A stretch of 57,506 bases of DNA, taken from Candidatus Doudnabacteria bacterium RIFCSPHIGHO2_01_FULL_46_14. Its GTDB lineage: Bacteria; Patescibacteriota; Doudnabacteria; UBA920; 2-01-FULL-46-14. The translations under genes were made by a program, and so were the position numbers. The stretch is taken from the NCBI GenBank assembly GCA_001779925.1, contig MFEK01000006.1, positions 80,407 through 137,912 of the forward strand, read 5' to 3'. Each line of letters starts with the position of its first letter. The first letter of the stretch is position 1. Below the pieces are notes generated by a model. The model was not told where the DNA came from. It ran no database searches and saw nothing but the letters and a program-made list of their open reading frames with translations. This document shows, one piece after another, positions 4,522 through 54,178 of this stretch.

Positions 4522-7119
4522 CTACTGTTTGTGATGAGGAGCGTTAATTAAACCACAGTGTTTATACTTATAAACTTTTCCAGTGTTAGGATTTATCGCT
4601 CCGCAGGGGCAGGGGTCATTTCGACCTATGGATTTTCCTTCCGAATTTGTTTGTACTGGCACGTGTTGATGTCGCATCTCTTCCCGTGGCTTCACCTCTA
4701 CCCGGAAAATCGTATAAACGATAGTGCGGTCGATGGCGGCAAGCATTTGCTCGAAAAGCCGCAGGCCGTCCTGCTTGTATTCTACGAGCGGGTCTTTTTG
4801 CGCGTAGCCTCGCAACCTTACTGACTGCCTGAGGTGATCCATGGTGTCCAAATGCTCCATCCAGAAATTGTCGATTGTTTGCAGGGTAATAACCTTTTCA
4901 ATTTCTCTCATGAACCGGGGAGTCAGATGCTGCTCTTTGTGCTCGTAGAGTTTTAAGGCCTCGTTTGTCAAATCACTTATCAACATTTCACTGCTGGAAT
5001 TTTTTACTTTTTGTTGAAGTTCCGGACTTATAGGGAAAATACCGCCCAAAGCCTTGACTCTGATCTCCCCGTCATCTTCTGTGGTCATGATGTTGTTGAT
5101 CTCTGAGGATATTTTTTGCAGAATCTGTTCTTTAAGGTCAATCTCCCCTTTTAGTATGCGGCGTCTGCGGTTATAAATAGTTTCACGTTGCTTATTGAGC
5201 ACATCATCAAAATCAAGAACATGTTTTCTGGTATCAAAATTGAAGCCTTCGATTTTTTTCTGTGCATTCTCTATGGATTTGCTGACAAGGGAATTTTCTA
5301 TGGGTTGGTCTTCCTCTACGCCCAGGGTGTCCATCATTTTTTTGACCCGATCGCCTCCGAAAATGCGCATGAGGTCATCATCAAGGGAAATGAAAAACTG
5401 CGAAGACCCAGGATCGCCTTGTCGCCCCGCGCGGCCGCGCAGTTGGTTGTCAATGCGCCGCGCTTCATGGCGTTCTGTACCTAAAATATGAAGCCCCCCC
5501 GCCTCTCCGACCTTTTTTGACTCCTCCGGATCCGGAGGGTTCCCCCCCAGAAGGATGTCCACACCGCGTCCTGCTATATTTGTGGCAAGTGTTACAGCCC
5601 CAAAACGGCCCGCCTGAGCAATTATATGGGCTTCCCGCTCGTGGTTCTTGGCATTTAGGATTTCATGCTTGACCCCGGTTTTTTTTAGCATTTCTGAAAG
5701 GTATTCATTTTTTTCGATGGAGATAGTACCTACCAGGATTGGCTGACCTTTGTTGTGACGATCCCTTATTTCTCTGATGATCGCTTCAAATTTACCGTTT
5801 TCAGTTTTATAAATACTGTCAGGAAGGTCCGCTCTAATCATATCTTTATGAGTCGGTATCTCCACTACATCCAGATTGTAAATTTTATGGAACTCCTCCG
5901 CCTCTGTTAGCGCCGTTCCAGTCATGCCGGCTAGTTTTTTGTAAAGCCGGAAATAATTTTGAAAAGTAACGGTCGCCAGGGTTTTAGACTCTTGTTTTAC
6001 CTGAACTCCCTCTTTGGCTTCGATTGCTTGGTGAAGACCTTCCGAATATCGCCGCCCAAACATGAGCCGGCCGGTAAACTCGTCTACAATAACTATTTCT
6101 CCTTCTTTGACTACGTAATCGCGGTCCAGGCGAAACAAAGTTTGAGCACGGAGAGCTACATCGGCATGGTGGCGAAGCTTGATCTCACTGTAGATTTCCT
6201 GTCCGTATTTCAACTCAAGTTTTTCGAAACCCTTATCAGTGTAATTTACTTGGCGGTGTTTTTCTTCCAAAAGATAATCTTCAGGAGCCAAGGTTTTTGC
6301 AAATCCTGAAAATTCGCGGTAAAGATCCGTACTCTCTGCGTCCGGGGCAGAGATGATCAGTGGTGTTCGGGCTTCGTCTATGAGAATCGAATCTACCTCA
6401 TCTACAATAGCGAAATGTAGATCTCTCTGGGACATGCTCTCACGCGACGGCGCCATATTGTCGCGCAGATAGTCAAAGCCAAATTCATTGTTCGTGCCGT
6501 AGAGAATGTCCGCCGCATAAGCCTCCCTTCTGGTAACAGGAGCCATATTTAACACATCGATCTGCACACCAGCGCCTCCTTCCATGGTGACCTGGGCTTC
6601 CGCTGCGGATTTCTCTGAGTATAAATAAGACGCCTCGTGTTGAATAGCTGCTGTACTCAGCCCCAAATAATGATAGACCTGGCCCATCCATGAGGCATCA
6701 CGGCGTGATAAATAATCGTTTACAGTTACGACATGTACACCCCTGCCAGCCAGAGCATTCAGGTACACGGCGAGAGTCGCGGTCAAAGTTTTACCTTCTC
6801 CAGTTTTCATTTCCGTGATCTTCCCCTGGTGCAGCATTACCCCGCCAATCAGCTGTTCGTCATAGTGGCGCTGGCCGAGCGTACGATGTGCGGCCATTCT
6901 GACCACTGCGAATGCCTCAGGCAAAATTTCGTCGAGAATTATCTTCTGATCCTCCCACGGTTTATCTTTGAGCTGCGCTTGCCATTTACGAGTCTGTTCC
7001 TGAAACTCGGAATGTGAAAAGCGCTCAAATTTGCGTTCGAGCTCGTTTATTCGATCTATAGATGGTTTTACAGTTTTAACCGGGTTTTCTGTCCCCAGTA
7101 GTTTTCCAAAAAATCCCAT
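4522..7119 (-). CDS. secA: preprotein translocase ATPase SecA
   Basis: 865 aa with Walker A MKTGEGKT, DEVD box VDEVDSILIDEA and a C-terminal zinc-binding tail CPCG...KHCG. Confidence 0.95.
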   Translation of the reverse strand: MGFFGKLLGTENPVKTVKPSIDRINELERKFERFSHSEFQEQTRKWQAQLKDKPWEDQKIILDEILPEAFAVVRMAAHRTLGQRHYDEQLIGGVMLHQGKITEMKTGEGKTLTATLAVYLNALAGRGVHVVTVNDYLSRRDASWMGQVYHYLGLSTAAIQHEASYLYSEKSAAEAQVTMEGGAGVQIDVLNMAPVTRREAYAADILYGTNNEFGFDYLRDNMAPSRESMSQRDLHFAIVDEVDSILIDEARTPLIISAPDAESTDLYREFSGFAKTLAPEDYLLEEKHRQVNYTDKGFEKLELKYGQEIYSEIKLRHHADVALRAQTLFRLDRDYVVKEGEIVIVDEFTGRLMFGRRYSEGLHQAIEAKEGVQVKQESKTLATVTFQNYFRLYKKLAGMTGTALTEAEEFHKIYNLDVVEIPTHKDMIRADLPDSIYKTENGKFEAIIREIRDRHNKGQPILVGTISIEKNEYLSEMLKKTGVKHEILNAKNHEREAHIIAQAGRFGAVTLATNIAGRGVDILLGGNPPDPEESKKVGEAGGLHILGTERHEARRIDNQLRGRAGRQGDPGSSQFFISLDDDLMRIFGGDRVKKMMDTLGVEEDQPIENSLVSKSIENAQKKIEGFNFDTRKHVLDFDDVLNKQRETIYNRRRRILKGEIDLKEQILQKISSEINNIMTTEDDGEIRVKALGGIFPISPELQQKVKNSSSEMLISDLTNEALKLYEHKEQHLTPRFMREIEKVITLQTIDNFWMEHLDTMDHLRQSVRLRGYAQKDPLVEYKQDGLRLFEQMLAAIDRTIVYTIFRVEVKPREEMRHQHVPVQTNSEGKSIGRNDPCPCGAINPNTGKVYKYKHCGLINAPHHKQ

Positions 7120-7131
7120 ATTTACCTTGCA

Positions 7132-7160
7132 AGTATACGCGAAAATTTGAGAAATTTCAA
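7132..7160 (-). promoter_or_regulatory. sigma-70-type promoter of secA
   Basis: Minus-sense TTGAAA (7160..7155), a 17-nt spacer, TATACT (7137..7132), then 12 nt to the secA ATG at 7119. Confidence 0.5.
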
Positions 7161-7187
7161 CGGCTCGGACAGGTTTGTGCTGTTGAA

Positions 7188-7661
7188 CTATCTTTGGCTT
7201 TTTCGGAACCCTGCGGCTTGCGCTTCGGCCTCTGTATCAAAGCAAGCTTCGGGTATAGTGCGTTTATAAAACGATCCGCCGGGTATGTGGTAAATCCTGG
7301 AATTTGATGAAATATTGCCTTTGATTTTGCCTTCGCAGTTAAGATCGGAGGTGTCAGCACCTGCCACTTGTCCTTCGGAATTGGTCTCCCCGCCTGATTG
7401 CTTTCCTGCGATATTTAAGCTATTATTAAGCTGAGTTAAATCGATAGTCGGTTCTTCGATCTTTATTTCAGGAGGCTTTTGGGAGGTTTGATACGCTCCC
7501 AGACCATAGAATAAGCTGGCAGTCAGCACGTATCCCAAAACCAGAGCAATTTTTTGTTCATGTCCCTTCAGTTTTGATAAAATGAAACTAAAATACGCTT
7601 TTAACCTCGGTAGAGTTTTTACATTGTCGCTTGCAGAGTTGTTCGCGGTGTTTGAAAACAT
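7188..7661 (-). CDS. membrane-anchored protein with small C-terminal Cys-containing domain (IKGNIS..IYHIPGG.FY....CF.TE.EA.AAGFR)
   Basis: A TM helix IALVLGYVLTASLFYGLGAY precedes the conserved C-terminal motif seen in many secreted Gram-positive proteins. The start is uncertain: the ATG at 7661 overlaps the divergent gene by 80 nt, and non-ATG starts near 7580/7571 are possible. The 7832 start of the track is unlikely. Confidence 0.5.
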   Translation of the reverse strand: MFSNTANNSASDNVKTLPRLKAYFSFILSKLKGHEQKIALVLGYVLTASLFYGLGAYQTSQKPPEIKIEEPTIDLTQLNNSLNIAGKQSGGETNSEGQVAGADTSDLNCEGKIKGNISSNSRIYHIPGGSFYKRTIPEACFDTEAEAQAAGFRKSQR

Positions 7662-8874
7662 GGCCTTGTCATTTCGCCTCGTGGATCTATACCGCGAGGT
7701 TTTAATTATTGAGGTCGAGGAAAAACTTGATGTGGTAAAGCTGCAGAAAACACTGGGCGGCACTATCAAGATAATGCAAGTGCTCGATTCCCTGGGTCGT
7801 AAAAAGTTTTTAAGTCCTTCTCTGGTCCTCAAAGATTATTTTGACGCAAAAATGCTCAAAGAGCAATTTTTGTCGAACTATACCGGCAAAATCCAGATTG
7901 GCATTTCTTATTACCCAATGGCTGACCCACGCGAATTGCCGATCCGCGGAGACAACAAACGAATTGGCTTTAATATCAAACAGATTCTAACGGCGGCAGG
8001 CTATTCAGTACGGCTGGTTTTGCCGCAGATGGCGGGATTTGCACTGGCATCAGTGGTGGTCACCAATGAGCACCTTTTGGAAAAAGGCGCGGAGATAGAT
8101 TTGCTGGTCGGCATGGAGCGGGTGTATTTGGCCAAAACACTTACAGTGCAGAACTTTGAGGATTATGGCCGGCGCGATTATCAGCGGCCCGCGCGCGACA
8201 TGCAGGTTGGCATGCTGCCGCCCAAGGTAGCCCAGATCATGATTAATCTTGCCCAACTGCCAGTTGCGTCTAGCGGGAACCTCAAACACGCGATTCTGGA
8301 CCCGTTTGTGGGCTCAGGCACGGTTATTCAGGAGGCTTTGATTATGGGCCACAAAGGAATCGGCTCAGATATTTCCCAAAAAGCCATAGAGAATGCGGAA
8401 AAGAACCTGGAATGGATAAAGAACCGCTACAAATTGCCTCCTGGAAGGTTTGAGCTGTTTGTCGCGGATGCAAAGAAGCTCAGCGAAAATCTTCCAAAAA
8501 TTGAGATTGACGCAGTTGTCACGGAAGCAACGCTTGGACCTGCTTACGGGACATCTCCTAAGCCTCAGGAAATCGAGAGGAATTTCAAAGAACTCGAAGC
8601 TATCTATATTGGTGCGTTCGAGTCATTCAAAAAGTTCCTTGTCCCCGGAAAACGGGTGGTGGTTGCCTTACCTGCTTACCGAACAGAAAAGGGCTATATC
8701 TATTTCCCAGGCATTGACAAGCTGGCGAAAACAGGGTACGATATTGTAGATCCTTTACCGGAAATCGTCGCTGAAAAATATCCTTTCCTGCAAATTACAG
8801 CGCGAAAAAGCCTAGTCTACGACCGCAAAGATCAGTTTGTATCAAGAGAAATATTTATATTTAGAAGTTTATAG
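7582..8874 (+). CDS. class I SAM-dependent (RNA) methyltransferase, UPF0020/Trm11-like
   Basis: 430 aa with a THUMP-like N-terminal region, SAM motif I ILDPFVGSGT and a degenerate motif IV VVTEATLGPAYG. Confidence 0.7.
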   Translation: MKLKYAFNLGRVFTLSLAELFAVFENMALSFRLVDLYREVLIIEVEEKLDVVKLQKTLGGTIKIMQVLDSLGRKKFLSPSLVLKDYFDAKMLKEQFLSNYTGKIQIGISYYPMADPRELPIRGDNKRIGFNIKQILTAAGYSVRLVLPQMAGFALASVVVTNEHLLEKGAEIDLLVGMERVYLAKTLTVQNFEDYGRRDYQRPARDMQVGMLPPKVAQIMINLAQLPVASSGNLKHAILDPFVGSGTVIQEALIMGHKGIGSDISQKAIENAEKNLEWIKNRYKLPPGRFELFVADAKKLSENLPKIEIDAVVTEATLGPAYGTSPKPQEIERNFKELEAIYIGAFESFKKFLVPGKRVVVALPAYRTEKGYIYFPGIDKLAKTGYDIVDPLPEIVAEKYPFLQITARKSLVYDRKDQFVSREIFIFRSL

Positions 8875-9013
8875 CATTAAGTCGCAAAAATTAGGAGCGC
8901 AGTCCCGAAGCTTACCGAGGGACGAGCACGGATTTTTGCGAAAGAGGAGTGGCAAGGGAATTGTAGTGGCCGTGAGTTAATCAAACGGACACGAAGATTT
9001 CCCCAGACACGAA

Positions 9014-14361: not shown

Positions 14362-15481
14362 CTACGACCTACTTTCCAAATACTTTTCAATAAACTCATC
14401 AAGCTCTCCGTTCAGAATATCATCTATATTGCTCGTCTCAAAATCTGTCCTGTGATCTTTCACTAGCTGATAAGGGTGCATAGTGTAGCTTCTGATTTGA
14501 TTGCCCCATTCTGCGCTCTTGTATTCGCCTCTCAGCTCCAGTTTTGCTGCGATTTGTTTTTCTTCTTCCAGCTTTTTGAGTTTGGCGGTGAGAATTTTCA
14601 TGGCCTGCTCTTTGTTCTGGGTTTGGCTGCGCTCGTTTTGGATCGAAACAGTGATTCCGCTCGGGATATGCGTGAGGCGTACAGCAGAGTAGGTAGTGTT
14701 TACAGACTGCCCGCCATGGCCAGATGCGGTTTTGGCTTCAAATTTGATGTCTTTAGGATCAATTTTGAACTCCTCCTCTCGCTCTAGCACAGGAAGTATT
14801 TCCACAAGTGCAAACGAAGTTTCTCTGGTGTGTGCCGGGTTGAACGGGGATAGTCGAATGAGACGATGCACCCCTGCCTCGCTTTTGAGGTAACCGTAGG
14901 CATAGTCACCGTGCGCCTCAAATGTCGCGCTCTTAATGCCGCCTTCCGGATTGCGGTTGTTGTCAATGAGAATTGTCTTGAATCCCCGCTTTTCCGCGAA
15001 CCTCAAATACATTCGAAGCAGGATTTCTGCCCAGTCCTGCGCGTCCAAACCGCCTGCCCCAGAGTGTATCGAGACTATAGCGTCATGGTCATCGTATTTA
15101 TCACTGAAAAAGGTGCTAACCCGTGTCTGCTCGTAACGGCGCTTTAAATCCTCATATATGCTTTCTAGCTCACTCCCTGTATTTTTTCCCTCCCCTTGAG
15201 GGGGAGGGTTAGGGAGGGGTGAACTCAATTTTACCAATTCCTCAAGCTCGACAACATCTTTCTCGAGTTTTTCCCAAAACTCCACCTGATTTTTTAAACC
15301 GGCAAGTTTTTTACTGACCTCCTGCGCGTTTCTGTTATCCTTCCAGAAATCCGCTTGACCAACCTGATCTTCTAATTCAAGAATTTTCTGTTTTTTTTGA
15401 GCAAGCTCAAAGATGCCCCCGTAAATCCTCGATTGAGGATTTTAGTTGTACTATACGATTTGATAGCCTTACCTCATTCAT
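14362..15481 (-). CDS. prfB: peptide chain release factor 2, with programmed +1 ribosomal frameshift
   Basis: Frame-0 leader MNEVRLSNRIVQLKSSIEDLRGHL runs from ATG 15481 and ends at CTT TGA (15412..15407), preceded by GGGGG (15420..15416). The +1 frame continues ELAQKKQKIL... into the track ORF. SPF and GGQ motifs are present. Confidence 0.9.
15188..15221. repeat. 34-nt GC-rich palindromic element inserted in frame in prfB
   Basis: Plus strand CCCTCCCCTTGAGGGGGAGGGTTAGGGAGGGGTG, translated SPLPNPPPQGEG. Its reverse complement matches 50049..50082 at 31 of 34 nt. Confidence 0.8.
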
Positions 15482-15538: not shown

Positions 15539-16015
15539 TTATTTACGACGGTAAATCGCGAATGAAAAATTTTCATGTTTTTCTTCTTCTGTCTTCTGCC
15601 ACTTGTCAAAATCGATCTTTGGGAAAAAAGAATCGCCTTTCGATTCAAACTCCACGTGGGTGATGTACATGAGCTCGGCCAGACCGATTGTCTGTTCGAA
15701 AATCTGCCCACCGCCGATTATAAACAGTTCTTTGTCCTGGTAATCAGCAATAGCTTTTTTCAAGTCATTGTATATAATCACTCCTGCGGGGACTTTATAA
15801 TCAGGGTCCTTGGTAATAACAATATTTAACCGATTTGGCAAAGGCTTTCCTAGCCTGCGCATTATAGATTCAAAAGTTTTTCTGCCCATCAGGCAAATTT
15901 TCCCGGTCGTGATCTGACGAAAGTGTTTCAGGTCTTCCGGCAAATACCAGGGAAGATCGTTTTCACTGCCAATAACCCAATTTTTAGCTATAGCAACCGG
16001 ACCTAAAATAATCAT
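15539..16015 (-). CDS. folA: dihydrofolate reductase
   Basis: 158 aa. VAIAKNWVIGSENDLPWYLPEDLKHFRQITTGK..LMGRKTFESI is canonical DHFR. Confidence 0.9.
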   Translation of the reverse strand: MIILGPVAIAKNWVIGSENDLPWYLPEDLKHFRQITTGKICLMGRKTFESIMRRLGKPLPNRLNIVITKDPDYKVPAGVIIYNDLKKAIADYQDKELFIIGGGQIFEQTIGLAELMYITHVEFESKGDSFFPKIDFDKWQKTEEEKHENFSFAIYRRK

Positions 16016-16605
16016 TATTTTATTATTTTATCAACCTCTAGCCAGATATCCTCCGCGACCTTTTCCTTGTCCTGATTAGCGTTTACGGTTTCCCAGCCAA
16101 ATTGCTTTGCCAGGGTACGGTGCGTGGCATCAACCTTGTGCATGAATTCCTCATCTGTTTCGTGCAAATGATTTTTTTCAGTGGCAGACCGAAACCTTTC
16201 CCCAACGAGCAGAATAGCCAAATCTTCGAACATAAACTGTTTATTGAGTACCAACAAAAAATCCTTATCAACCCCGGCCCCCATCCCCCATGCAACGCCA
16301 GTGCCCCAGTAATCTTCGGCCACAATATCGATCCCGGATTCCAGATCAGCTTTCAGCGTCGTTTCGTACTGCGCTCGGTTTTCCGCGTAGATTTTTTGCG
16401 CGTCTTCAGCTGAGAGTTTTTCCGGGTTACCATGACGCAAGTATGCATTAAGTCTTTTACCTGAATGTCCCAGATCGTAAACAGGGTATTTTAAATATTT
16501 CGCCTTGCGGCCGATCAAATTTAATTTCTCAACCAACAGTCTTGCTTGCGTTGTTTTGCCAAGGTTGTTTACTCCGTAGAGCACTATAAGTTTTCCATTG
16601 GCCAT
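16015..16605 (-). CDS. thymidylate kinase-like dNMP kinase
   Basis: P-loop GVNNLGKTTQ and a Tmk-like EDYWGTGVAWGMG segment. The ATG at 16605 (MANGK) fits better than 16662, which overlaps the upstream gene. Confidence 0.6.
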   Translation of the reverse strand: MANGKLIVLYGVNNLGKTTQARLLVEKLNLIGRKAKYLKYPVYDLGHSGKRLNAYLRHGNPEKLSAEDAQKIYAENRAQYETTLKADLESGIDIVAEDYWGTGVAWGMGAGVDKDFLLVLNKQFMFEDLAILLVGERFRSATEKNHLHETDEEFMHKVDATHRTLAKQFGWETVNANQDKEKVAEDIWLEVDKIIK

Positions 16606-16616
16606 AGCTACCTTTT

Positions 16617-16862
16617 TTATCTTCCCGCAACGCCCGCGACCGTTAGATAACCGACAATGCATGTGGCTATGACAATCACGATGACTACCTTGTTTATCTT
16701 AAGCTTGCCCATAACCGTCTCCAGGATCAGGATCAGACCAAAGAAGCCGATTTCCAGAACAACAGGGCCGCTTAGTACGTATTTAATACCCATTTGCCTG
16801 GCCAGGAATCCAAGGTGCACGATAAGGAGAAGAAGAATTATGATATTGAGCTTTTTGATCAT
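16617..16862 (-). CDS. small hydrophobic membrane protein
   Basis: 81 aa with 2-3 predicted TM helices. Same strand as its neighbours. Confidence 0.5.
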   Translation of the reverse strand: MIKKLNIIILLLLIVHLGFLARQMGIKYVLSGPVVLEIGFFGLILILETVMGKLKINKVVIVIVIATCIVGYLTVAGVAGR

Positions 16863-16910
16863 GACTTTGATTTTAATTTTATTATTAGTTCAAGCTTACC
16901 ATAAGAGAGA

Positions 16911-17195
16911 TTATTTCGTAAGCATGCCAACGAGGGCTATGACCAAGAAAGGCGATGGCAGCATGCACACCCCGAGAATAGACCAATGCTTGCCTTCCAT
17001 GTCTTTGGCATGTGCGATGATGCTGATGACCAAGCATGCGGACATGCTGGCCATGCTTAGCAGAATCGCGCCAATAACCAATATCCAATTTTTACTTATA
17101 CTTGAGGGAAGCGCTGTAAAAGCCAAAGCCACGACAGACGGAAGCATTGCAGCCATCAGACCAACTATGCCCCAGTTTATTTTTTTTTCGGACAT
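16911..17195 (-). CDS. small hydrophobic membrane protein
   Basis: 94 aa with 3 hydrophobic segments and a GGAG Shine-Dalgarno about 10 nt upstream. Confidence 0.5.
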   Translation of the reverse strand: MSEKKINWGIVGLMAAMLPSVVALAFTALPSSISKNWILVIGAILLSMASMSACLVISIIAHAKDMEGKHWSILGVCMLPSPFLVIALVGMLTK

Positions 17196-17268
17196 TTTAT
17201 TTTTACTCCGGCAAGACTTTAATTAAGTAAAGATTACCAGAAATCGCGCGCAGGTACAATCTAGGATT

Positions 17269-17916
17269 TTAAAGGGGGTTTTCGGATAGTGGAAATCGTT
17301 TTTTCAGCTCCTCGATATCGCCTTTGGCAATGAGCTCGTTTTCCGGCGAGGAGCCTTCGCCGATTACGCCGGCGATCACGTCCTTTTTATGGTAGCGGCT
17401 GAGCTTTGGCTCAACGCTCTCTGCAAGTTCTTCAAAAACCAGCTGGCAGAATCTCTCCCCGGGGTACAGCTTTACCACCTGTCCTCCTGTGTTATTGCGC
17501 ACCGGAATAATAAGCTGGCCTTCATAGCCCGCATCAACGATGCCGCTTAGATCCACGGACAAGCCTTTGCGGTTTGTCGAAGATCGCGGATACAGCACGG
17601 CCATCAAATCGTTTGGCAGCTTTACGGTTTCGAGAGTGGAAACGAGAATATGTTCGTGGGGCAGGATTTCAAAATGCTGGCCTCGCTCAAGCTCGATTAC
17701 TTCAAAATATTTCGGCCGATCCTGGCTTAAATAGTCCAAACTCAGGGCTTGCCGTCCTGCGGCAGTCACGTGGGAAACTTTAGGCACCATAAACGTATAA
17801 CCCAGGCGCAGATCAATAGAGTGAGATTGCAGCTGAAATTCGTCCAACCCCGGGGAGAACGACAGTCCCCCCTCCTTGATTCGCTTCATTATTTGTTTTT
17901 TTACCAGTATTGCCAT
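17269..17916 (-). CDS. dcd: dCTP deaminase/dUTPase-family protein (Dcd-like; catalytic Glu apparently absent)
   Basis: PRSSTNRKG and GIVDAGYEGQLIIPVRN...GERFCQLVF are Dcd/dUTPase trimer-fold motifs. See the finding on the Glu->Pro position. Confidence 0.75.
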   Translation of the reverse strand: MAILVKKQIMKRIKEGGLSFSPGLDEFQLQSHSIDLRLGYTFMVPKVSHVTAAGRQALSLDYLSQDRPKYFEVIELERGQHFEILPHEHILVSTLETVKLPNDLMAVLYPRSSTNRKGLSVDLSGIVDAGYEGQLIIPVRNNTGGQVVKLYPGERFCQLVFEELAESVEPKLSRYHKKDVIAGVIGEGSSPENELIAKGDIEELKKRFPLSENPL

Positions 17917-17924
17917 TTGTAAAT

Positions 17925-18761
17925 TTATAAAACTATTTTTAATCCTTTAATCGCTTCTCCGGGATTATAACCTTGAGAAAGACTTTGCGCAATTTCCGCG
18001 ACTAGGATTTTATCGCCTCTTTCTGCGCGCTCAAAACTATTATTCGGAAGAGTTAGGATGACTGGCTGCTGCTCTATGGATCTGCCCAAGAGTTCCTGAG
18101 CGGCCTCATAATGTATATCGTAAATGTGGGCGTTAGAAATTGAATGTGAATAAATGCCCGGCCTCATTTCCAACTTCTGCGCCAGAATGCACTGTAGTAG
18201 AGCGAATCCGGCGACATCATGCGGGAAACCGAGGATCATATCATTCGATCTAACAATGTTATGCATGTGCAACCGCCCGCCGATTATGTTTACCGTGAAT
18301 GTATACGGGCAAGGCACGTTCTTTTTACCGATGCCACCGAGTCCGTCACTGCCCGGATCCCAGGTAACTACCACGCCGTGTCTAGAGCTCGGGTCTTTCT
18401 TTAAAAGCTCAATTAGCAACCTTAGTTGGTCTCGTCCGAAATGCGTACGCCAGCGATAGCCGTAAGCTACGGTCACCACGTCTCCAGGATTGGTAAAATC
18501 ATCCCAGATATGCGTGAATTCACGGAGGAAATCAGCAGGCTTCCTCGAACCCATTATATACCAGACCTGCTCTGCGACAAAGAGTTTTATGGGTATCTTT
18601 CGAAGGGAAAGGAGTGGAAATCCGTCCTTTTCAAGGTCAATGTTAAAATGCATTCCTGGAACAGCTACAGTCTCATGTCCGGTCCTGCCATTGACCTCAC
18701 GGATGCCTTCCCGCATGATTTTCCCGATCAAATCTTGATAAATTTTGTCATACATAGTCAT
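17925..18761 (-). CDS. thyA: thymidylate synthase (ThyA)-family pyrimidine C5-transferase, possibly dCMP-specific
   Basis: ThyA motifs are present: DGFPLL, YGYRWR, DPSSRH, catalytic Cys in VPCPYTF, RSND..LGFPHD and AHIY. Confidence 0.8.
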   Translation of the reverse strand: MTMYDKIYQDLIGKIMREGIREVNGRTGHETVAVPGMHFNIDLEKDGFPLLSLRKIPIKLFVAEQVWYIMGSRKPADFLREFTHIWDDFTNPGDVVTVAYGYRWRTHFGRDQLRLLIELLKKDPSSRHGVVVTWDPGSDGLGGIGKKNVPCPYTFTVNIIGGRLHMHNIVRSNDMILGFPHDVAGFALLQCILAQKLEMRPGIYSHSISNAHIYDIHYEAAQELLGRSIEQQPVILTLPNNSFERAERGDKILVAEIAQSLSQGYNPGEAIKGLKIVL

Positions 18762-18800
18762 TAGATTTTAGTGTATAATATAATCATTAAAAATCAAAGC

Positions 18801-19277
18801 ATGGCTATCCACTACCCTTACCTTCCAAAAAATTGGCAAATTCTCTACGTCCCAGAAGATAACCCGTTCATGCTGGCCGCGCGGGAAAAAGCCCTCAAGG
18901 AATCAAAAGATAAAAGCGTGCAAACCGGCAGCGTTATGGTAAAAGATGGGGTAATCATCGGCACTGGAGCTAACGGGAGTGATTTTCACAACAACAACGA
19001 ATGCGTCCGGGTCAAACTAAAAATTCCGACCGGGCAGGGATATGAGCTCTGTGAAGGCTGTCATCCGAAAAATCATAGCGAACCAAAAGCAATAAAGGAC
19101 GCACAGGATCACGGATTTGATACCCAAGGCGCCGATCTCTATCTATGGGGACATTGGTGGTGTTGCGAGCCATGCTGGAATGCGATGATCGAGGCCGGAA
19201 TAAAAAATGTCTATCTTCTGGAGGACAGTGAATTTCTTTTCAGCAAAAGCGACCCGAGAAATATTCTTCCTAAATAA
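18801..19277 (+). CDS. dCMP deaminase (ComEB/CDA zinc-dependent family)
   Basis: Zinc motifs HSEPKAI and CEPCWNAM. ATG 18801 (MAIHYPY) is preferred over GTG 18771, which lies in a TATAAT box. Confidence 0.8.
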   Translation: MAIHYPYLPKNWQILYVPEDNPFMLAAREKALKESKDKSVQTGSVMVKDGVIIGTGANGSDFHNNNECVRVKLKIPTGQGYELCEGCHPKNHSEPKAIKDAQDHGFDTQGADLYLWGHWWCCEPCWNAMIEAGIKNVYLLEDSEFLFSKSDPRNILPK

Positions 19278-24473: not shown

Positions 24474-25619
24474 TTATCGCAATTCCGCATTATATTGTAT
24501 CTTTGTCTGTTCATATAATTTTGACTGCAGCGGCTCTACCTCTCCGGTTTCGAGCGTTCTATCCAGACTGCGGTAGACTACCCGATAAGTATAGCTTATT
24601 TTACCTTCGCCGAATTTGGCAGGGTCTTCGTATTTGTCGAGAAGCTCTACTTGTTCAACGAGATCGCCGCCAATATCCCGGATCAAATCGAAATAGTCAT
24701 TGGGGATGAATTTTTTTTCCACGATAAACGAGATATCACGGGTAATTGGAGGATATTTGGAGACCTCTTTGAATTCTTGCCCGAGCTTTAGTTGCTTTTT
24801 TACCCGGTCGTCTTGCGACCACAAAAGCCTAATATCAGGAAGGGACATGGAAATCATGGCAAAACGTTCAATGCCGGGTCCAAACGCCCAACCAGTCCAT
24901 TTTGAAGAATCGACTCCTAATTTATCGAGCACACTCGCTTTCACCACGCCTGCGCCCACAACCTCGAGCCATTTATCTCCTCGTTTAATTTCCATCTCCA
25001 GCGAGGGTTCGGTATAAGGAAATTTGTCTTCATTGAACCGGTATTCCACAGCAGGGCCAAAGATAGCTTTCGCAAAATTAGCCAGCGCTTCACGTAAGTC
25101 ATCTATGGTTATTATTTTTTTATCTTTGGGTGACAAATACCACGCATCCATCTGATGGAAGACATTCATGTGATGACGGTCCAATTCGTCTTTGCGGTAA
25201 ACTTTTCCAAAACAAAACGCACCAGCCGGCTCACCGGCAAGCATTCGTTTCTTAACGCCTTCATCGTGTAGATAGTAGTACCACATGACTGTTGTGTGGG
25301 TTCGCAGGATATTGTTTCCATCCAGGTAGTAGGTGTCAGATTTGGATCTGGCCGGATGATTCTCCGGAAAATCGAACAGGTCAAAACTGATACCGGTCGG
25401 TGTTATTTCCGGGACTTGAATCACATCAAAATCCTTGAAGGCTGGCGATGATAAAACCCGTTGAACTATCTCAAAAAGCGGACTACCCGGGGTGCGCGAC
25501 AAATCCGGCATGCTCAAATACCTTTTTATTCTCTCACTCTCCGGGTCGTGCTTACTTTCGAGCTCTGCGCGCAGGCGAACCTCATCATCTGATTGAACCA
25601 TTATGTTCTGACCGGGCAT
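24474..25619 (-). CDS. pheS: phenylalanine--tRNA ligase alpha subunit
   Basis: FDLFDFPENHPAR, class II motifs FGKVYRKDE and GWAFGPGIERFAM. No pheT lies next to it. Confidence 0.9.
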   Translation of the reverse strand: MPGQNIMVQSDDEVRLRAELESKHDPESERIKRYLSMPDLSRTPGSPLFEIVQRVLSSPAFKDFDVIQVPEITPTGISFDLFDFPENHPARSKSDTYYLDGNNILRTHTTVMWYYYLHDEGVKKRMLAGEPAGAFCFGKVYRKDELDRHHMNVFHQMDAWYLSPKDKKIITIDDLREALANFAKAIFGPAVEYRFNEDKFPYTEPSLEMEIKRGDKWLEVVGAGVVKASVLDKLGVDSSKWTGWAFGPGIERFAMISMSLPDIRLLWSQDDRVKKQLKLGQEFKEVSKYPPITRDISFIVEKKFIPNDYFDLIRDIGGDLVEQVELLDKYEDPAKFGEGKISYTYRVVYRSLDRTLETGEVEPLQSKLYEQTKIQYNAELR

Positions 25620-29081: not shown

Positions 29082-32000
29082 TTATAACTCGAGTTCTATA
29101 TATTTGCACTTTACCCTGTGCGGTGTCTGCTGATCATGCTTCAGAAACTCGTTCTGCTTTGTGCATTCAACAATCTCGTTTATCGCTTCCGCGAAATCAG
29201 CCTTCAGTTTCTCTATATCTTTATCCTGGCCTATAAACGGAACCTTGGCAAGACCTTTTTTCAAATACCAGTATTCCAAGCGCGCCACCTGTTCTCCCAA
29301 GGCCTCTTTGGCAGCCCATTGATAAACCAGAAGCTGCTGTTTGTCCACGTCCGCGATTTTGCGCTGTTCTCCTGTCTTGTAATCGATAATAACGAGGCCC
29401 TCCGGCGATTTGTCAGCGCGGTCGATCTTGCCGGTAAAATAATAGTTTCCGAGCTTGAGTTTAAAGGCTTTTTCCAGGTATTTTGGCTGAGGCGGACTGG
29501 TTTTTGATTCATCATAAAATTCCCGGAGGATTTTTCGTCCTAGCAACTGAAACTCTTCCCTTTCCGCGCGAGTATCATACCAGTCATTAATCCAGCATTG
29601 CTCGTAAAGTTTTTGCAGATATTCTAACGACGGCAGCTCGGGTTTGCTGCTTCCAAACAAATCCTGCGAATTGGAAGACACCATATACTGCCGCAGGAAT
29701 TTTTCAAACGTGCTGTGCATGGTTATACCGAAAGACTGCACCCCGCTTCCCGGGGTTGGCAGACGCATAATATAGCGGTATTTATATTCCAAGGGGCATC
29801 TTTTGAAAAGGGAAATCTGCGAGAAGGAAAAAAATTTCGGCAAGGGTAGCGGGAGATGGCCGGTCGGTAATCCGGCTGGGTAAGGATTTAATTCTACCTT
29901 TCCGGTTGCTTTCGAAGTTTTCTCTTTTTTAATCAACCCCAACTCATGCAAAAAAACTGAAGGGCGCTTTTTGCGCTTGCCGCCATAATCCTCGGCGGAG
30001 GTCAGAAATAATCCGAGTTTGGCGCGGGTCATGGCGACATAGAACAGACGTCGCTCTTCTTCTATGTGAAAATCCCCCTCCGGCAAATATTCGCGGATCA
30101 GCTCAGTAGGGATTTCGATCTGTTCCTTTCGTTCTATTGTCGGAAAACGTTTATCTACAAGGCCAACTACAAAAACATTGCTGAACTCCAACCCCTTGGC
30201 CGCGTGCACAGTCATGAGCTTGACTGCCTCTGGTCCAGCCTCTGGATCAAAGCGCAGATCGCCTTCTTCGCCTGCTTCCTGTTCAAGGTTGATAATCGAG
30301 AGAAAAGTTTTCAAAGTTTTATCAAGGCTATCATTTTGAAAATCCAATATTCGCCGCCGGAAAGTTTCCAGATAGTTTGCGTTTTGATTATCCTCAGCAA
30401 TCAGTTTGGAAAAATGCAAATCATTAACAATCTGCACGAAAACCTGGTCAGTGGATCTATTTTTGGCTGTTTCCGCATGCACGCGGATGAATTCTAAAAA
30501 TGCATGCAGGCCTTCTCTTGAAGCATCATCAATATCCAGGGCTGAGGCTTGCAAGACTGCCTGGTACAGAGAAAGAGTTTTTCGTTTAGCAAATGAAGCC
30601 AGCTCGATAATAGCATGGCTGGAAACCTTGAAAATCGGAAATCTCAAAACGCGGTAAAGTGCCGCAGTCTCGTGGTAATTATCCAGCAGCCGGAAATAGC
30701 TCAAAATATCGAGAATAATCGTCTTGCTATAAAGACCCTTGTTGGCAAAATAGATATAAGGGATCTTCAGCGCATCAAATTTATTCAAAAACGGCTCGAG
30801 GCTGGTATGCGAACGCGCCAAGATCGCAAAATCATTGAAAGTGATGTCTTTGTCTGCCCCTCGTGCAGTGCCAGCCGTAGCCTCGCGCGAAGGATGGGAG
30901 GGGGAGTTGGAGAGGGTCATGAGTTCAGTAATTTTATTAACTACCGCATCGACTTCCTCCAGATAAGTCCCTACTTGCAAGTGTTCCAAATTTCCCTTTT
31001 CTGCCAAATTTGATTTGAGCTTTTTGGACAGCTTGAGTTTGATTTCCAGCCGGTCCGGGTTATTGAGCTGGATGAAGTTATATGCCGAGTCCAGAATTTT
31101 CTGTCCAGAGCGATAGTTATCAGTCAGAGAAATAAATTCGGCGTTCGGATAATCTTTTTGAAAATGAATGATGTTGGAGATGGAAGCTCCGCGAAATTTA
31201 AAAATACTCTGGTCATCGTCTCCAACTACAGTGATATTGTTGCTTGGAGCCGCTAGCAATTTGACAAGTTCATACTGCGCAAGGTTTGTATCTTGGAACT
31301 CGTCGACGAGAATATATTTGTACCGGTCCCGCAAATGGTCCAGAACCTTCGGACGCTTTTTAAAAAGCCGGAGCGTATAATTAATAAGGTCCCCGAAATC
31401 CAGAGCCGAATTGTCCAGGAGGATTTTGTTGTAAGTATGATAAGCGCCCGCTATTTCTTGAAGTCTAGCGGGATTTTCTGGCTCAGATTCCCCTCCCGGG
31501 GAAGGAGCGAGATCAGGGGAGGTTATCTGCGTTTCTGCTCCCTCGGAATTCAATTTGAGTTTCTCCACATAATCCAAATACTCCTCGGGGCTGATCAACT
31601 CGTCCTTTAGCCGCGAAAAATGCGACAACACTGCTTTGATAAATTTGGTCGGATTGCCAAGCGGCCGGTAGTAATCGAGGTTGAATTTGTCGAGATTATT
31701 GCGGATGAGGAGCCACTGTCCGACATCATTTAAAACTTTAAAATCCGGCAAGCCTATCTCAATACCGTATTCGCTCAAAATCTGCTCGCCAAAGGCATGG
31801 AACGTGGAAATCTGCACATTCACAAAACCATGCGGAAGCAACATGTCCACGCGCTCCTCCATTTCCCCTGCCGCCTTTTCCCCAAACGCCAAAGCCAAAA
31901 TTTCTTCCGGTTTGACGCCTTGCTCGATTAGATAAGCAATTCTACGAGTGATGACAGTGGTCTTTCCAGTCCCCGCACCCGCTACTATAAGAAGAGGCCC

Positions 32001-32093
32001 ATCTGCATGAGTGACCGCCTTTTCCTGCTCTGCATTGAGTCCCTCGAGCAGTTTACTTTTCCCTTTAATTTTTATCTCCGTTTGTTGGGGCAT
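29082..32093 (-). CDS. UvrD/PcrA-type helicase fused to a C-terminal PD-(D/E)xK (RecB/AddB-like) nuclease
   Basis: Helicase motifs GAGTGKTT, LVDEFQDTN, VGDDDQSIFKFRGA, TDNYRSG, HAAKGLEF and VAMTRAK. Nuclease motifs GKIDRAD...IIDYKTG and QLLVYQWA. Confidence 0.85.
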   Translation of the reverse strand: MPQQTEIKIKGKSKLLEGLNAEQEKAVTHADGPLLIVAGAGTGKTTVITRRIAYLIEQGVKPEEILALAFGEKAAGEMEERVDMLLPHGFVNVQISTFHAFGEQILSEYGIEIGLPDFKVLNDVGQWLLIRNNLDKFNLDYYRPLGNPTKFIKAVLSHFSRLKDELISPEEYLDYVEKLKLNSEGAETQITSPDLAPSPGGESEPENPARLQEIAGAYHTYNKILLDNSALDFGDLINYTLRLFKKRPKVLDHLRDRYKYILVDEFQDTNLAQYELVKLLAAPSNNITVVGDDDQSIFKFRGASISNIIHFQKDYPNAEFISLTDNYRSGQKILDSAYNFIQLNNPDRLEIKLKLSKKLKSNLAEKGNLEHLQVGTYLEEVDAVVNKITELMTLSNSPSHPSREATAGTARGADKDITFNDFAILARSHTSLEPFLNKFDALKIPYIYFANKGLYSKTIILDILSYFRLLDNYHETAALYRVLRFPIFKVSSHAIIELASFAKRKTLSLYQAVLQASALDIDDASREGLHAFLEFIRVHAETAKNRSTDQVFVQIVNDLHFSKLIAEDNQNANYLETFRRRILDFQNDSLDKTLKTFLSIINLEQEAGEEGDLRFDPEAGPEAVKLMTVHAAKGLEFSNVFVVGLVDKRFPTIERKEQIEIPTELIREYLPEGDFHIEEERRLFYVAMTRAKLGLFLTSAEDYGGKRKKRPSVFLHELGLIKKEKTSKATGKVELNPYPAGLPTGHLPLPLPKFFSFSQISLFKRCPLEYKYRYIMRLPTPGSGVQSFGITMHSTFEKFLRQYMVSSNSQDLFGSSKPELPSLEYLQKLYEQCWINDWYDTRAEREEFQLLGRKILREFYDESKTSPPQPKYLEKAFKLKLGNYYFTGKIDRADKSPEGLVIIDYKTGEQRKIADVDKQQLLVYQWAAKEALGEQVARLEYWYLKKGLAKVPFIGQDKDIEKLKADFAEAINEIVECTKQNEFLKHDQQTPHRVKCKYIELEL

Positions 32094-42137: not shown

Positions 42138-42213
42138 TTGGTGGCTGGGGTGGGGATTGAACCCACGACCTCGGGCTTATGAGTCCCACGCTCTACCGAC
42201 TGAGCTACCCAGC
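42138..42213 (-). tRNA. tRNA with CAT anticodon, elongator Met (or Ile2), CCA encoded
   Basis: Acceptor GGCTGGG/CCCAGCC (G1:C72, so not an initiator), D arm GCTC-AGTCGGTA-GAGC, loop CTCATAA, T arm GTGGG-TTCAATC-CCCAC. Confidence 0.85.
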
Positions 42214-42231
42214 CATATTTTTTTACTGCAG

Positions 42232-42471
42232 CTATGCTATTAACTTTTTCAAGAACTCTCTGCCTTTGCCAGTCTTAAAAAAACCCTCTCTCTTTTCAGC
42301 TTCAATCCTAGTTTTAAAAGACTCATAGTGCACTAACTTCCAAGGTCTGTTTTTGGCTGTATAGCTTGGGAACTCCCCGCTATTATGTTGCACCAATCGC
42401 TTCATTATATCGTCAGTGGACCCTTTATATAATAGCCCTTTCTGATTCCGGAGCACATACGCATAATACAT
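42232..42471 (-). CDS. GIY-YIG nuclease-family protein (UPF0213-like)
   Basis: 79 aa. MYYAYVLRNQKGLLYKGSTDDIMKRLVQHN...FKTGKGREFLK has the GIY/YIG spacing. It is embedded in the tRNA cluster. Confidence 0.8.
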   Translation of the reverse strand: MYYAYVLRNQKGLLYKGSTDDIMKRLVQHNSGEFPSYTAKNRPWKLVHYESFKTRIEAEKREGFFKTGKGREFLKKLIA

Positions 42472-42478
42472 AGTTTTT

Positions 42479-42554
42479 TGGTTGCGGGACCGGGATTCGA
42501 ACCCGGAACCTCAAGGTTATGAGCCTTGCGAGCTGCCAGTTGCTCTATCCCGCG
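42479..42554 (-). tRNA. initiator tRNA-fMet (CAT), CCA encoded
   Basis: C1-A72 mismatch (CGCGGGA/TCCCGCA), A11:U24 in D stem GAGC/GCTC, loop CTCATAA, T arm CCGGG-TTCGAAT-CCCGG. Confidence 0.9.
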
Positions 42555-54056: not shown

Positions 54057-54178
54057 TTCCAAATTCGATATTCCAAATTCGATATTCCAAATTCGATATT
54101 CCAAATTCGATATTCCAAATTCGATATTCCAAATTCGATATTCCAAATTCGATATTCCAAATTCGATATTCCAAATTC
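54057..54178. repeat. perfect tandem repeat, 14-bp unit TTCCAAATTCGATA x 8.7
   Basis: Counted directly: 8 full units plus 10 nt. The last unit overlaps the atpB stop codon (54177..54179). A degenerate related sequence lies at 54024..54056. Confidence 0.95.

Follow-up and report, generated by a model that had tools for sequence, protein, structure and literature searches.

A conserved gene cluster of CPR bacteria may make thymidylate by methylating dCMP before deaminating it

A deoxypyrimidine cluster in a bacterial core locus

What chemistry is carried out by a set of thymidylate-like genes in which two enzymes have altered active sites? The window analysed here (57,506 nucleotides of contig MFEK01000006.1) holds five such genes, located where a sequence-only reading of this DNA had placed them. 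That reading had seen in them a T4-like set for 5-hm-dCTP and, as an alternative, a route from dCMP through 5-methyl-dCMP to dTMP that would explain the DHFR gene. The window belongs to a cellular CPR (Patescibacteria) chromosome and not to a phage, and the cluster has ftsEX, prfB and the L11/L1 operon as its neighbours. Its features are as follows.

15539-16015, minus strand: DHFR, FolA type (PF00186, E=4e-51)
16015-16662, minus strand: Tmk-like kinase (PF02223, E=5e-15)
16617-16862, minus strand: small predicted membrane ORF between the Dcd homologue and the kinase, listed by position
16911-17195, minus strand: second small predicted membrane ORF, likewise listed by position
17269-17916, minus strand: Dcd homologue (PF22769, E=2e-32)
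17925-18761, minus strand: ThyA homologue (PF00303, E=9e-51)
18762-18800, no strand: 39-bp intergenic region separating the divergent ThyA homologue and deaminase genes; contains a promoter-like site
18771/18801-19277, plus strand: divergent deaminase of the CDA superfamily (PF00383, E=1e-11)

The Dcd homologue starts 8 nt downstream of the ThyA homologue, the stop of the kinase overlaps the start of DHFR, and DHFR closes the operon, with a strong terminator hairpin behind it at 15532-15503. The kinase probably starts at ATG 16605; for the deaminase the mechanical ORF begins at GTG 18771, and homologues favour ATG 18801. The promoter-like site, TAGTCA-18-TATAAT at 18755-18784(+), is a consensus match only. 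ORF 16911-17195 has no Pfam or NCBIfam match and no homologue in 80 related loci, and the two small membrane ORFs (16617-17195) probably lie outside the pathway.

We found the cluster in at least 251 CPR species genomes, usually beside the L11 operon. The deaminase adjoins the ThyA homologue in divergent orientation in all 80 reference CPR loci, the Dcd homologue adjoins it in 79, and a DHFR-family gene of one of two non-orthologous subtypes lies within 3.5 kb in 71. CPR folA genes are functional by complementation (PMC11974145). The cluster is thus a conserved housekeeping operon of the CPR rather than a phage island.

The ThyA homologue carries the cytosine-reading residues

HMMER alignment to solved TS structures places Asp at the position of E. 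coli Asn177 in the ThyA homologue (in 'rsnDmilgfphD') and Pro at that of His147 ('pcpytf' aligned to 'pchclf'), and MAFFT alignment with E. coli ThyA reproduces both, as the sequence-only reading had called them by eye. Asp177 is present in 119 of 120 database homologues and 80/80 reference CPR loci, Pro147 in 120 of 120 and 79/80. In the literature as cited in PMC8670742, Asn177 is the established uracil-reading residue, Asp there switches TS to dCMP, and N177D/N229D mutants methylate dCMP; positions 177 and 147 are also those that best separate TS homologues of cytosine-modified from those of unmodified contigs (PMC8670742). The protein keeps Cys146, Arg21/126/166, Asp169, Glu58, Trp80, Tyr94, His207 and Tyr209; it also retains Ser167, which together with Arg126 points to deoxy-specificity.

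The best phage matches are the Xp12 group (36-40% identity). Identity to the Xp12 dCMP methyltransferase is 38% (189 bits), against 22% (40 bits) to T4 gp42. The Xp12 enzyme, the nearest characterised relative, has been shown to make 5mdC (bioRxiv 10.1101/2024.12.05.627091). An insertion is common to the two proteins, and both carry the signature A57/F83/N143/P147/D177, as do 105-133 of the 150 nearest representative clusters; across 105+ clusters Asp177 and Pro147 co-vary with F83/N143. By its sequence, the ThyA homologue belongs to the Xp12 dCMP-methyltransferase subfamily. Residues 177 and 147, the behaviour of the TS mutants, the Xp12 kinship, and the common insertion and signature all argue for cytosine specificity, as the sequence-only reading had proposed. 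We therefore predict a dCMP C5-methyltransferase of Xp12 type that converts CH2-THF to DHF.

The T4 comparison is less favourable. T4 gp42 does have the same Asp where the pyrimidine is read, and the RSND..GF..D pattern given for it in the sequence-only reading proved correct (gp42 reads NMRSNDVVFGFRNDYAW). T4 (gp42, gp56, gp1, cd, frd) follows the general strategy also predicted here, hydrolysing dCTP and then transferring a C5 group to dCMP, and the CPR cluster has its own pyrophosphatase, kinase, deaminase and DHFR. A reading in which the ThyA homologue hydroxymethylates dCMP and the gene set builds 5hm-dCTP is nevertheless very improbable. The C-terminal tail kept in the ThyA homologue is missing in gp42; this, the low identity to gp42 and the DHFR linkage in 71/80 loci suggest that the product is methyl, not hydroxymethyl. 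A hydroxymethylase needs no DHFR, and gp42 produces no DHF, whereas the tight DHFR linkage implies DHF release. The T4 dCTPase gp56 is a MazG-type all-alpha protein and not homologous to the Dcd homologue, and the host genome is cellular. Among the genes annotated next to the cluster we saw neither a glucosyltransferase nor any other gene that decorates 5hmC, which also disfavours this reading.

The Dcd homologue has lost its deaminating glutamate

Aligned by HMMER with the bifunctional Dcd:Dut of B. halodurans (4XJC, its closest solved relative, E=1e-18) and with E. coli Dcd, the Dcd homologue has Pro at catalytic Glu138 ('gqliiPvrn' against 'gqitlElfn' and 'civlEfy'). Alignments that could have returned Asn at ThyA position 177 or Glu here gave Asp and Pro. 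Pro138 occurs in 77/77 loci and 120/120 homologues, and the sole other copy that we found (locus L091) adjoins an Asp177 ThyA homologue fused to a deaminase; a MazG-ThyA fusion was found as well. The substitutions in the two enzymes are not chance. R110, S111, R115, T/S123 and D128 are retained, and the protein scores 118 bits with TIGR02274, above the cutoff. All named viral Dcd relatives checked keep the Glu.

Judging by the Pro at Glu138, the protein cannot be a deaminase, as the sequence-only reading had argued. We predict that it is a pyrophosphatase converting dCTP to dCMP and PPi and supplying the ThyA homologue, although its sequence does not fix the base preference (C, U or 5mC). The Dut-like appearance of motif 3 is a counterpoint to the methylation-first model.

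Motif 3 would also fit a conventional route, in which the ThyA homologue methylates dUMP (or dUMP and dCMP), the deaminase makes dUMP and the Dcd homologue is a Dcd-fold dUTPase, so that dTMP synthesis is routine. The five genes pass as a classical set, two of them above NCBIfam equivalog cutoffs, and archaeal-virus Dcd-fold proteins are annotated as dUTPases. Those checked, including the SIRV1 gene, keep the Glu138 that the CPR protein has lost, and 22 loci encode a separate canonical Dut alongside the Dcd homologue. The near-invariant, co-varying Asp177 and Pro147 and the 5mdC-making Xp12 enzyme also stand against this route, which we regard as unlikely. In a few loci (4-5) an intact Tmk-ThyX fusion adjoins the cluster, and there the deaminase could supply ThyX with dUMP (dCMP to dUMP to ThyX).

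The deaminase and the kinase

The deaminase keeps its H-x-E and C-x-x-C motifs, and 1493 homologues, about 65% identical to it, occur in the CPR. The best PDB match of its AF2 model (pLDDT 90) is T4 dCMP deaminase (E=1e-6, TM 0.5). It has an extra Cys/His cluster and lies on a separate, CPR-specific branch, with likeness to the Xp12 deaminase at the motif level only, a point against the methylation-first model. We predict that it converts 5-methyl-dCMP to dTMP.

The kinase in the window is atypical: EDY replaces the DRY motif, so that the catalytic arginine is missing (a second counterpoint to the methylation-first model), and the score falls under the TIGR00041 cutoff. In the PDB the kinase comes closest to human and Plasmodium TMPK (E ~2e-12). 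The parallel to T4 dNMP kinase drawn by the sequence-only reading did not hold, as no match to that structure was obtained. The equivalent of human TMPK Arg76, which we take to contact thymine O4, is present in the window's kinase and in 31/31 Tmks. We predict a dTMP kinase.

In at least 13 loci the gene immediately after the deaminase encodes a Tmk, and in one locus (L067) the two are fused. Together with the conserved arginine, this coupling points to a deaminase that probably acts on the monophosphate, not on 5mdCTP. A further counterpoint is mSCD-B5, the one such phage deaminase to have been characterised, which takes 5mdCTP and not 5mdCMP as substrate (bioRxiv 10.1101/2024.12.05.627091). 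Like the CPR enzyme, the deaminases of its group belong to PF00383, have an Asp177 ThyA homologue as gene neighbour and are a proposed source of thymidine nucleotides from 5-methyl-dC nucleotides; unlike the Tmk-linked CPR enzyme with its Cys/His cluster, mSCD-B5 is viral and acts on the triphosphate and ssDNA (same source).

Discussion

We infer, with a probability of roughly 0.55, that these bacteria make thymidylate by methylating dCMP and then deaminating it. A Dcd homologue derived from a bifunctional dCTP deaminase/dUTPase ancestor, having lost only the deaminating Glu, would act purely as a pyrophosphatase (dCTP to dCMP and PPi). The ThyA homologue would reductively methylate dCMP to 5-methyl-dCMP with 5,10-methylene-THF, releasing dihydrofolate that DHFR would recycle. 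The divergently transcribed deaminase would yield dTMP, and Tmk would phosphorylate it to dTDP. Such a route is supported by the redundancy of ThyX, whose domain has decayed in locus L072.

The net chemistry would equal that of the classical route through dUMP (dCTP to dTMP, CH2-THF to DHF to THF), without the dUMP intermediate. Folds and operon logic are those of ThyA/DHFR with a bifunctional Dcd:Dut (B. halodurans 4XJC, M. jannaschii DCD-DUT). In the CPR, Glu138 to Pro, Asn177 to Asp and His147 to Pro would shift deamination to after methylation, and a separate deaminase would therefore be required.

Xp12 and Pseudomonas phage PaMx74 cluster the same four functions (a MazG-type NTP pyrophosphatase, a dCMP methyltransferase, a dCMP-deaminase-family enzyme and DHFR), and synthesis of thymidine nucleotides by 5-methyl-dC nucleotide deamination has been proposed for Xp12-type phages (bioRxiv 10.1101/2024.12.05.627091). 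The ThyA homologue shares subfamily, insertion, signature and C-terminal tail with Xp12. The CPR module differs in forming a conserved core operon of a bacterial chromosome, in having a Glu-less Dcd-fold pyrophosphatase instead of MazG, and in its deaminase branch; its end product, unlike that of Xp12, is probably canonical DNA.

The same enzymes could instead build a cellular Xp12-like DNA, with 5-methylcytosine replacing cytosine in the CPR chromosome. The Dcd homologue would clear dCTP and supply dCMP, the ThyA homologue would make 5mdCMP, a kinase (possibly Tmk) and NDK would raise it to 5mdCTP for replication, and the deaminase would turn part of that pool into dTTP, as proposed for Xp12. 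The one-for-one match to the four Xp12 functions, the dCTP-destroying pyrophosphatase included, and the triphosphate required by the phage deaminase speak for this, as does intact ThyX in a few loci, where a second dTMP route would be needless; the lack of any C5 DNA methyltransferase in 1.2 Mb of related loci is a weak sign in the same direction. We nevertheless consider a 5-methylcytosine genome quite unlikely. We know of no cellular organism with fully substituted DNA, and among thousands of CPR assemblies, the nanopore-only L036 included, we found no report of global 5mC. The coupling of deaminase to Tmk, with its presumed thymine-O4 arginine, better fits a dTMP product, and the ThyX decay in L072 also speaks against this genome. 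In addition, cmk is reported to be poorly represented in Parcubacteria (PMC4508563), and the NEB screen placed deaminase and ThyA pairs for which dT synthesis was not predicted on contigs scored as unmodified (bioRxiv 10.1101/2024.12.05.627091).

Of the sequence-only interpretation, the active-site calls, the cytosine specificity and the alternative route through 5-methyl-dCMP stand, the last favoured by the evidence; the T4-like 5-hm-dCTP headline gives way to a cellular, Xp12-like module. We found no prior report in the literature of methylation before deamination in the CPR. If the proposed route is true, the matched active-site changes in these two enzymes would represent a thymidine route otherwise proposed only for 5-methylcytosine phages such as Xp12.

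A deoxypyrimidine operon on a bacterial chromosome

Positions 15539-19277 hold five genes of deoxypyrimidine metabolism, all placed by Pfam in the expected families and arranged as a minus-strand operon with a divergent deaminase.

Features of the deoxypyrimidine cluster
17925-18761, minus strand: ThyA-like gene, first in the operon (PF00303, E=9e-51)
17269-17916, minus strand: Dcd-like gene, following the ThyA-like gene in the operon (PF22769, E=2e-32; TIGR02274, 118 bits)
within 16617-17195, minus strand: two small predicted membrane ORFs between the Dcd-like and kinase genes, interrupting the operon
16015-16662, minus strand: Tmk-like gene, probable start ATG at 16605
15539-16015, minus strand: FolA gene, last in the operon
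15532-15503, minus strand: strong hairpin terminator at the operon end
18801-19277 (from the ATG), plus strand: deaminase gene, divergent from the operon and 39 bp apart from it

The ORF at 16911-17195 has no counterpart across 80 related loci that we fetched. Two of the genes exceed NCBIfam equivalog cutoffs, the ThyA homologue as 'thymidylate synthase' and the Dcd homologue as 'dCTP deaminase', and public sources name their relatives likewise.

The window is a bacterial chromosome. The cluster is flanked by ftsX, ftsE, prfB, rplA, rplK, nusG and secE, and elsewhere the window carries secDF, secA, pyrG, gyrB, pheS, the ATP synthase operon, purD and tRNAs. Its relatives belong without exception to the Candidate Phyla Radiation (CPR), or Patescibacteria. 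With each species represented by a single genome, a scan for the ThyA homologue gave relatives in 251 genomes, and the 80 fetched loci span Paceibacterota, Kaiser-, Taylor-, Adler-, Nomura-, Colwell-, Doudna- and Moranii-bacteria, Saccharimonadales and others, with the L11 operon beside the cluster in 56 of them. The cluster has the behaviour of a housekeeping module maintained by vertical descent. A phage or prophage origin is ruled out by the flanks (ftsEX, prfB, L1/L11, nusG, secE) together with a position kept in 80 CPR genomes. We found no second ThyA in the window, in the 10 kb past its left edge or in the 80 loci, and no nucleotide genes in those 10 kb.

Upstream of the neighbouring prfB (14362-15285, minus strand) lies a classic RF2 programmed +1 frameshift site, GGGGG cat CTT TGA, at about 15400-15420. 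This is an ordinary feature, and because of it a mechanical ORF list gives only the downstream part of the gene.

The ThyA homologue resembles the dCMP methyltransferase of phage Xp12

HMMER alignment to solved thymidylate synthases (TS), with which a MAFFT alignment to E. coli ThyA agrees, places Asp at E. coli Asn177 and Pro at His147 (E. coli numbering), as the sequence-only reading had called by eye; its statement that T4 gp42, the dCMP hydroxymethylase, shares the RSND...GF..D pattern was also correct. Asp177 occurs in all 80 loci and in 119 of 120 database homologues, and Pro147 in 79 of the 80 and in all 120. Further changes are Leu143 to Asn, Trp83 to Phe, Arg127 to His (His or Gln across the loci) and Asp205 to Asn, while Cys146, Arg21, Arg126, Arg166, Asp169, Glu58, Trp80, Tyr94, His207 and Tyr209 are retained, Cys146 and the three arginines in 80/80 loci. 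The protein keeps the fold, catalytic cysteine and phosphate-binding arginines of ThyA (EC 2.1.1.45) and lacks Asn177, which together with His147 reads O4/N3 of dUMP. Positions 177 and 147 are the two that best discriminate TS homologues of modified from those of unmodified contigs, and N177D/N229D TS mutants methylate dCMP (both in PMC8670742).

When compared with 50,697 phage records, the protein scores highest with the 'thymidylate synthase' of Xp12, a Xanthomonas phage with 5-methylcytosine DNA, and its relatives, and with that of the PaMx74 group (36-40% identity, about 189 bits; Xp12 itself 38%). The best solved dUMP-specific TS scores 117 bits, and T4 gp42 only 40 bits at 22% identity. 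The CPR and Xp12 proteins have in common the block AYGYRWR-HFGRDQLRL and an insertion, DGLGxxGxKNVPCP, both absent from E. coli ThyA and gp42, and they agree at A57, F83, N143, P147 and D177; both also have a full C-terminal tail. Of the 150 clusters nearest to the CPR protein among 1.84 billion representative proteins, searched exhaustively, 133 carry Asp177 and 105 carry Pro147 with Asp177; clusters with the canonical signature W83/L143/H147/N177 start only at greater distance (E about 1e-37 onwards). The subfamilies are not resolved by PHROGs. Signature, insertion and closest similarity are all those of an Xp12-type dCMP methyltransferase (EC 2.1.1.54), and we predict that the CPR enzyme is of Xp12 type rather than T4 type. 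The Xp12 homologue and five metagenomic relatives yield 5-methyl-dC by LC-MS (bioRxiv 10.1101/2024.12.05.627091).

We also considered a CMP hydroxymethylase of the MilA/BcmA type, whose ribo-specificity comes from Ala at Ser167 and Lys at Arg126' (PMC5175136). Ser167 is present in 120/120 homologues and Arg126 in every locus, which rules this type out; since the MilA determinants are absent, the substrate should be a deoxynucleotide.

Predicted methylation rather than hydroxymethylation

Reductive methylation releases dihydrofolate (DHF), whereas hydroxymethylation does not. A gene of the dihydrofolate reductase (DHFR) family lies within 3.5 kb of the Asp177 ThyA in 71 of the 80 loci, contig ends accounting for most of the nine exceptions, and it stands between or after the ThyA and Dcd genes. 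Two non-orthologous subtypes fill this place: 37 loci have the FolA type, and 34 have a shorter protein of about 165 aa that is DHFR/RibD_C-like. That the function is kept while the gene is swapped suggests that DHF recycling is what matters. The Xp12 module also has a DHFR, and an E. coli strain deleted for folA is rescued by folA genes from CPR (PMC11974145). The C-terminal tail of the Asp177 ThyA is full-length with a hydrophobic end (...KIVL) as in TS, which, from established TS enzymology, would fit TS-like closed-site chemistry. DHFR linkage and tail point, indirectly, to 5-methyl-dCMP and dihydrofolate as the predicted products.

The sequence-only reading had favoured a T4-like enzyme set for 5-hydroxymethyl-dCTP. 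Its active-site calls stand, so that the T4 interpretation holds in part, but we reject a T4-type hydroxymethylase (EC 2.1.2.8) in view of similarity, tail and DHFR linkage: the CPR protein has the Asp179-equivalent of that class and neither its truncated C-terminus nor its DHFR-free setting.

The Dcd homologue has lost the deaminase glutamate

The earlier call of Pro at catalytic Glu138 is borne out by HMMER, both against E. coli Dcd and against the best solved match, the bifunctional Dcd:Dut of B. halodurans (4XJC, E=1e-18). Pro138 is found in 77/77 loci and 120/120 homologues. Ser111, Arg115 and Thr/Ser123, which from the Dcd and DCD-DUT structural literature we take to be the residues working with Glu, are retained, as are Arg110 and Asp128, so that Glu138 is the sole loss among these positions. 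The protein thus has the fold and the Ser111, Arg115 and Asp128 of Dcd (EC 3.5.4.13) and Dcd:Dut (EC 3.5.4.30) without their catalytic glutamate. As its closest solved relative hydrolyses the triphosphate besides deaminating, the simplest prediction from sequence is a dCTP pyrophosphatase giving dCMP and PPi.

Could this protein simply be the dUTPase of the cell, in place of a trimeric Dut (EC 3.6.1.23)? Its motif 3 is Dut-like (GIVDAGYEGQL, against the pattern G-x-I-D-x-x-Y-x-G-x-L). It shows nothing recognisable of the C-terminal Dut motif 5 (R-G-x-x-G-F-G-S-T-G), and it scores 47 bits against TIGR00576, where the cutoff is 103. Besides the Pro138 protein, 22 loci have a separate full-length canonical Dut no more than 10 kb away, about 35% identical to that of E. 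coli. The named viral Dcd relatives that we checked all keep Glu138, including the SIRV1 gene annotated as a dUTPase, which has reportedly been characterised biochemically. The only other Pro138 copy that we found, 41% identical, is on a phage-like contig of 58 kb (L091, Logan SRR28892722, 8001-9973), where it directly adjoins a fusion of deaminase and Asp177 ThyA; the large subunit of a class I RNR is encoded close by. The separate Dut, the viral Glu138 and the Pro138 copy beside an Asp177 fusion together weaken the dUTPase reading.

In IMG/VR we found no genes of the Pro138 Dcd type, and only two contigs with the Asp177 ThyA, 55-59% identical to that of the window. On one (L084) the deaminase overlaps the ThyA gene and is followed by a HAD-family phosphatase; the other (L083) has PNKP and HNH endonucleases nearby.

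In Xp12 the gene at 8216-8989, upstream of the ThyA homologue, carries the annotation 'hydrolase (HAD superfamily)', but by its match to PRA-PH/MazG (E=7e-15) it is a MazG/PRA-PH pyrophosphohydrolase. A fusion of MazG to an Asp177 ThyA also exists (P0282). This suggests that the pyrophosphatase slot is constant in Asp177 modules, and that the Pro138 Dcd would fill it in CPR. The Xp12 gene preceding the MazG-type gene (7741-8223) matches HhH-GPD base-excision glycosylases.

The deaminase and its linkage to Tmk in part of the loci

The deaminase belongs to a CPR-specific family of about 1500 sequences with intact H-x-E and C-x-x-C motifs (HSE and CEPC, invariant) and an extra invariant Cys/His cluster. 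Its AF2 model (pLDDT 90) matches the T4, human, S. mutans and PBCV-1 dCMP deaminases moderately (TM about 0.5), and it has the CDA fold and zinc ligands of dCMP deaminase (EC 3.5.4.12). We found no specific homology between it and the Xp12 deaminase; the likeness is at motif level only. It divergently adjoins the Asp177 ThyA in all 80 loci, and a fusion of a deaminase to an Asp177 ThyA also exists (P0274).

If the Asp177 ThyA does not use dUMP, a deaminase converting dCMP to dUMP would feed nothing, whereas one converting 5-methyl-dCMP to dTMP would complete a pathway. In at least 13 loci Tmk comes immediately after the deaminase, the stop codon of one gene often overlapping the start codon of the next, and in one locus (L067, 1336-2619, minus strand) a single 427-aa ORF carries a CPR-type deaminase and a canonical Tmk with both Pfam domains, possibly as a sequencing or assembly artefact. 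All 31 CPR Tmks retain the equivalent of Arg76, which contacts thymine O4 in human TMPK. This context, Tmk coupling and fusion together with the deaminase-ThyA fusion and the Tmk arginine, supports a predicted action of the deaminase at the monophosphate level, the least secure step of the scheme. The phage enzyme mSCD-B5, unlike the CPR deaminase as proposed here, needs 5mdCTP (bioRxiv 10.1101/2024.12.05.627091).

The kinase of the window has the P-loop GVNNLGKT, and EDY in the position of the catalytic DRY/DRH motif of thymidylate kinases (EC 2.7.4.9). This subtype is restricted to the window and one other locus (L049, 5958-6545), the other 29 CPR Tmks having DRY, NRY or DRF. In four loci of one CPR subclade, the gene right after the deaminase fuses Tmk to a genuine tandem Thy1/ThyX (PF02511, E=2e-36).

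Tmk-ThyX fusions (about 766 aa)
L027, 7113-9413, minus strand
L042, 707-3001, minus strand
L023, about 7073-8653
L051, partial copy

Where the two coexist, the deaminase could supply dUMP to ThyX as well. A further locus (L072, 7537-9390, minus strand) has the same architecture with the RHR motif lost and Thy1 barely matched, a decay which suggests that a cell with the cluster can do without ThyX.

A proposed reordered thymidylate pathway

We propose that the Pro138 Dcd would convert dCTP to dCMP and PPi, and that the Asp177 ThyA would methylate dCMP to 5-methyl-dCMP, releasing DHF for recycling by DHFR. The deaminase would then turn 5-methyl-dCMP into dTMP, with Tmk acting next. This reordered pathway, which the sequence-only reading had offered as its alternative, is in our view the best explanation of the cluster, at a probability slightly above one half (about 0.55).

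The gene set is also that of Xp12, and it is conceivable that the cluster is the chromosomal equivalent of the phage module, with cytosine globally replaced by 5-methylcytosine in a CPR chromosome. Here the Pro138 Dcd would destroy dCTP, the Asp177 ThyA would methylate dCMP, and part of the 5-methyl-dC nucleotide pool would be deaminated for thymidine. We consider this improbable: a dTMP product accords with the coupling to Tmk, cmk is reportedly scarce in Parcubacteria (PMC4508563), and despite many long-read CPR assemblies we found no report of such a chromosome. In the NEB screen, moreover, pairs of Asp-type ThyA and deaminase occur on contigs scored as unmodified (bioRxiv 10.1101/2024.12.05.627091). 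A search with M.HhaI found no C5 DNA methyltransferase in the window and the loci, a sample too small to carry much weight. If the 5-methylcytosine chromosome were real, CPR would provide the first cellular organism in which one base is completely replaced, and these DNA-scavenging episymbionts would gain a built-in discrimination of their own from foreign DNA.

Other features of the window

Several further features were observed outside the cluster.

7582-8874, plus strand: 430-aa protein with weak N6/N4 DNA-methylase matches
24474-25619, minus strand: 381-aa protein with a PheRS class II catalytic core and an FDX-ACB anticodon-binding domain, an architecture reminiscent of the monomeric mitochondrial PheRS and not of the bacterial alpha2beta2 enzyme
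29082-32093, minus strand: 1003-aa fusion of a UvrD-type helicase and a PD-(D/E)XK nuclease
40160-41677, minus strand: 505-aa ORF without a Pfam match; local G+C is 0.52, against about 0.45 in the rest of the window
42139-42554: 79-aa ORF with a GIY-YIG nuclease domain (42232-42471) between two tRNA-Met genes, with a tRNA-Asp adjoining
54057-54178: perfect tandem repeat of the 14-bp unit TTCCAAATTCGATA (8.7 copies, 100% identity) in a gap between ATP synthase genes

Relation to earlier work and implications

The conversion of 5-methyl-dC nucleotides to thymidine nucleotides is an idea known for phages, as is the dCMP methyltransferase (bioRxiv 10.1101/2024.12.05.627091). Papers on CPR, among them PMC11974145, handle these genes as a normal thyA, and a broad phylogeny of ThyA and ThyX makes no mention of them. 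Our literature search, which covered papers outside subscription-only journals, found no report tying CPR thyA to dCMP or describing global 5mC in CPR. The same search gave no earlier description of the module as the core operon ('thyA-dcd-folA + deaminase') of a bacterial radiation, of a Dcd partner lacking the Glu, or of the linkage between deaminase and Tmk.

If the reordered pathway is true, two complementary single-site changes, Asn to Asp in ThyA and Glu to Pro in Dcd, would have reordered a central pathway, and the 5-methylcytosine machinery of Xp12-like phages would be linked to a cellular housekeeping operon. In thousands of genomes its genes now carry the automatic annotations 'thymidylate synthase', 'dCTP deaminase' and 'dCMP deaminase'; CPR metabolic reconstructions and predictions of antifolate and fluoropyrimidine sensitivity would change. 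A whole bacterial radiation would then make its thymidylate by a route known in no cell, from dCTP through dCMP and 5-methyl-dCMP to dTMP.
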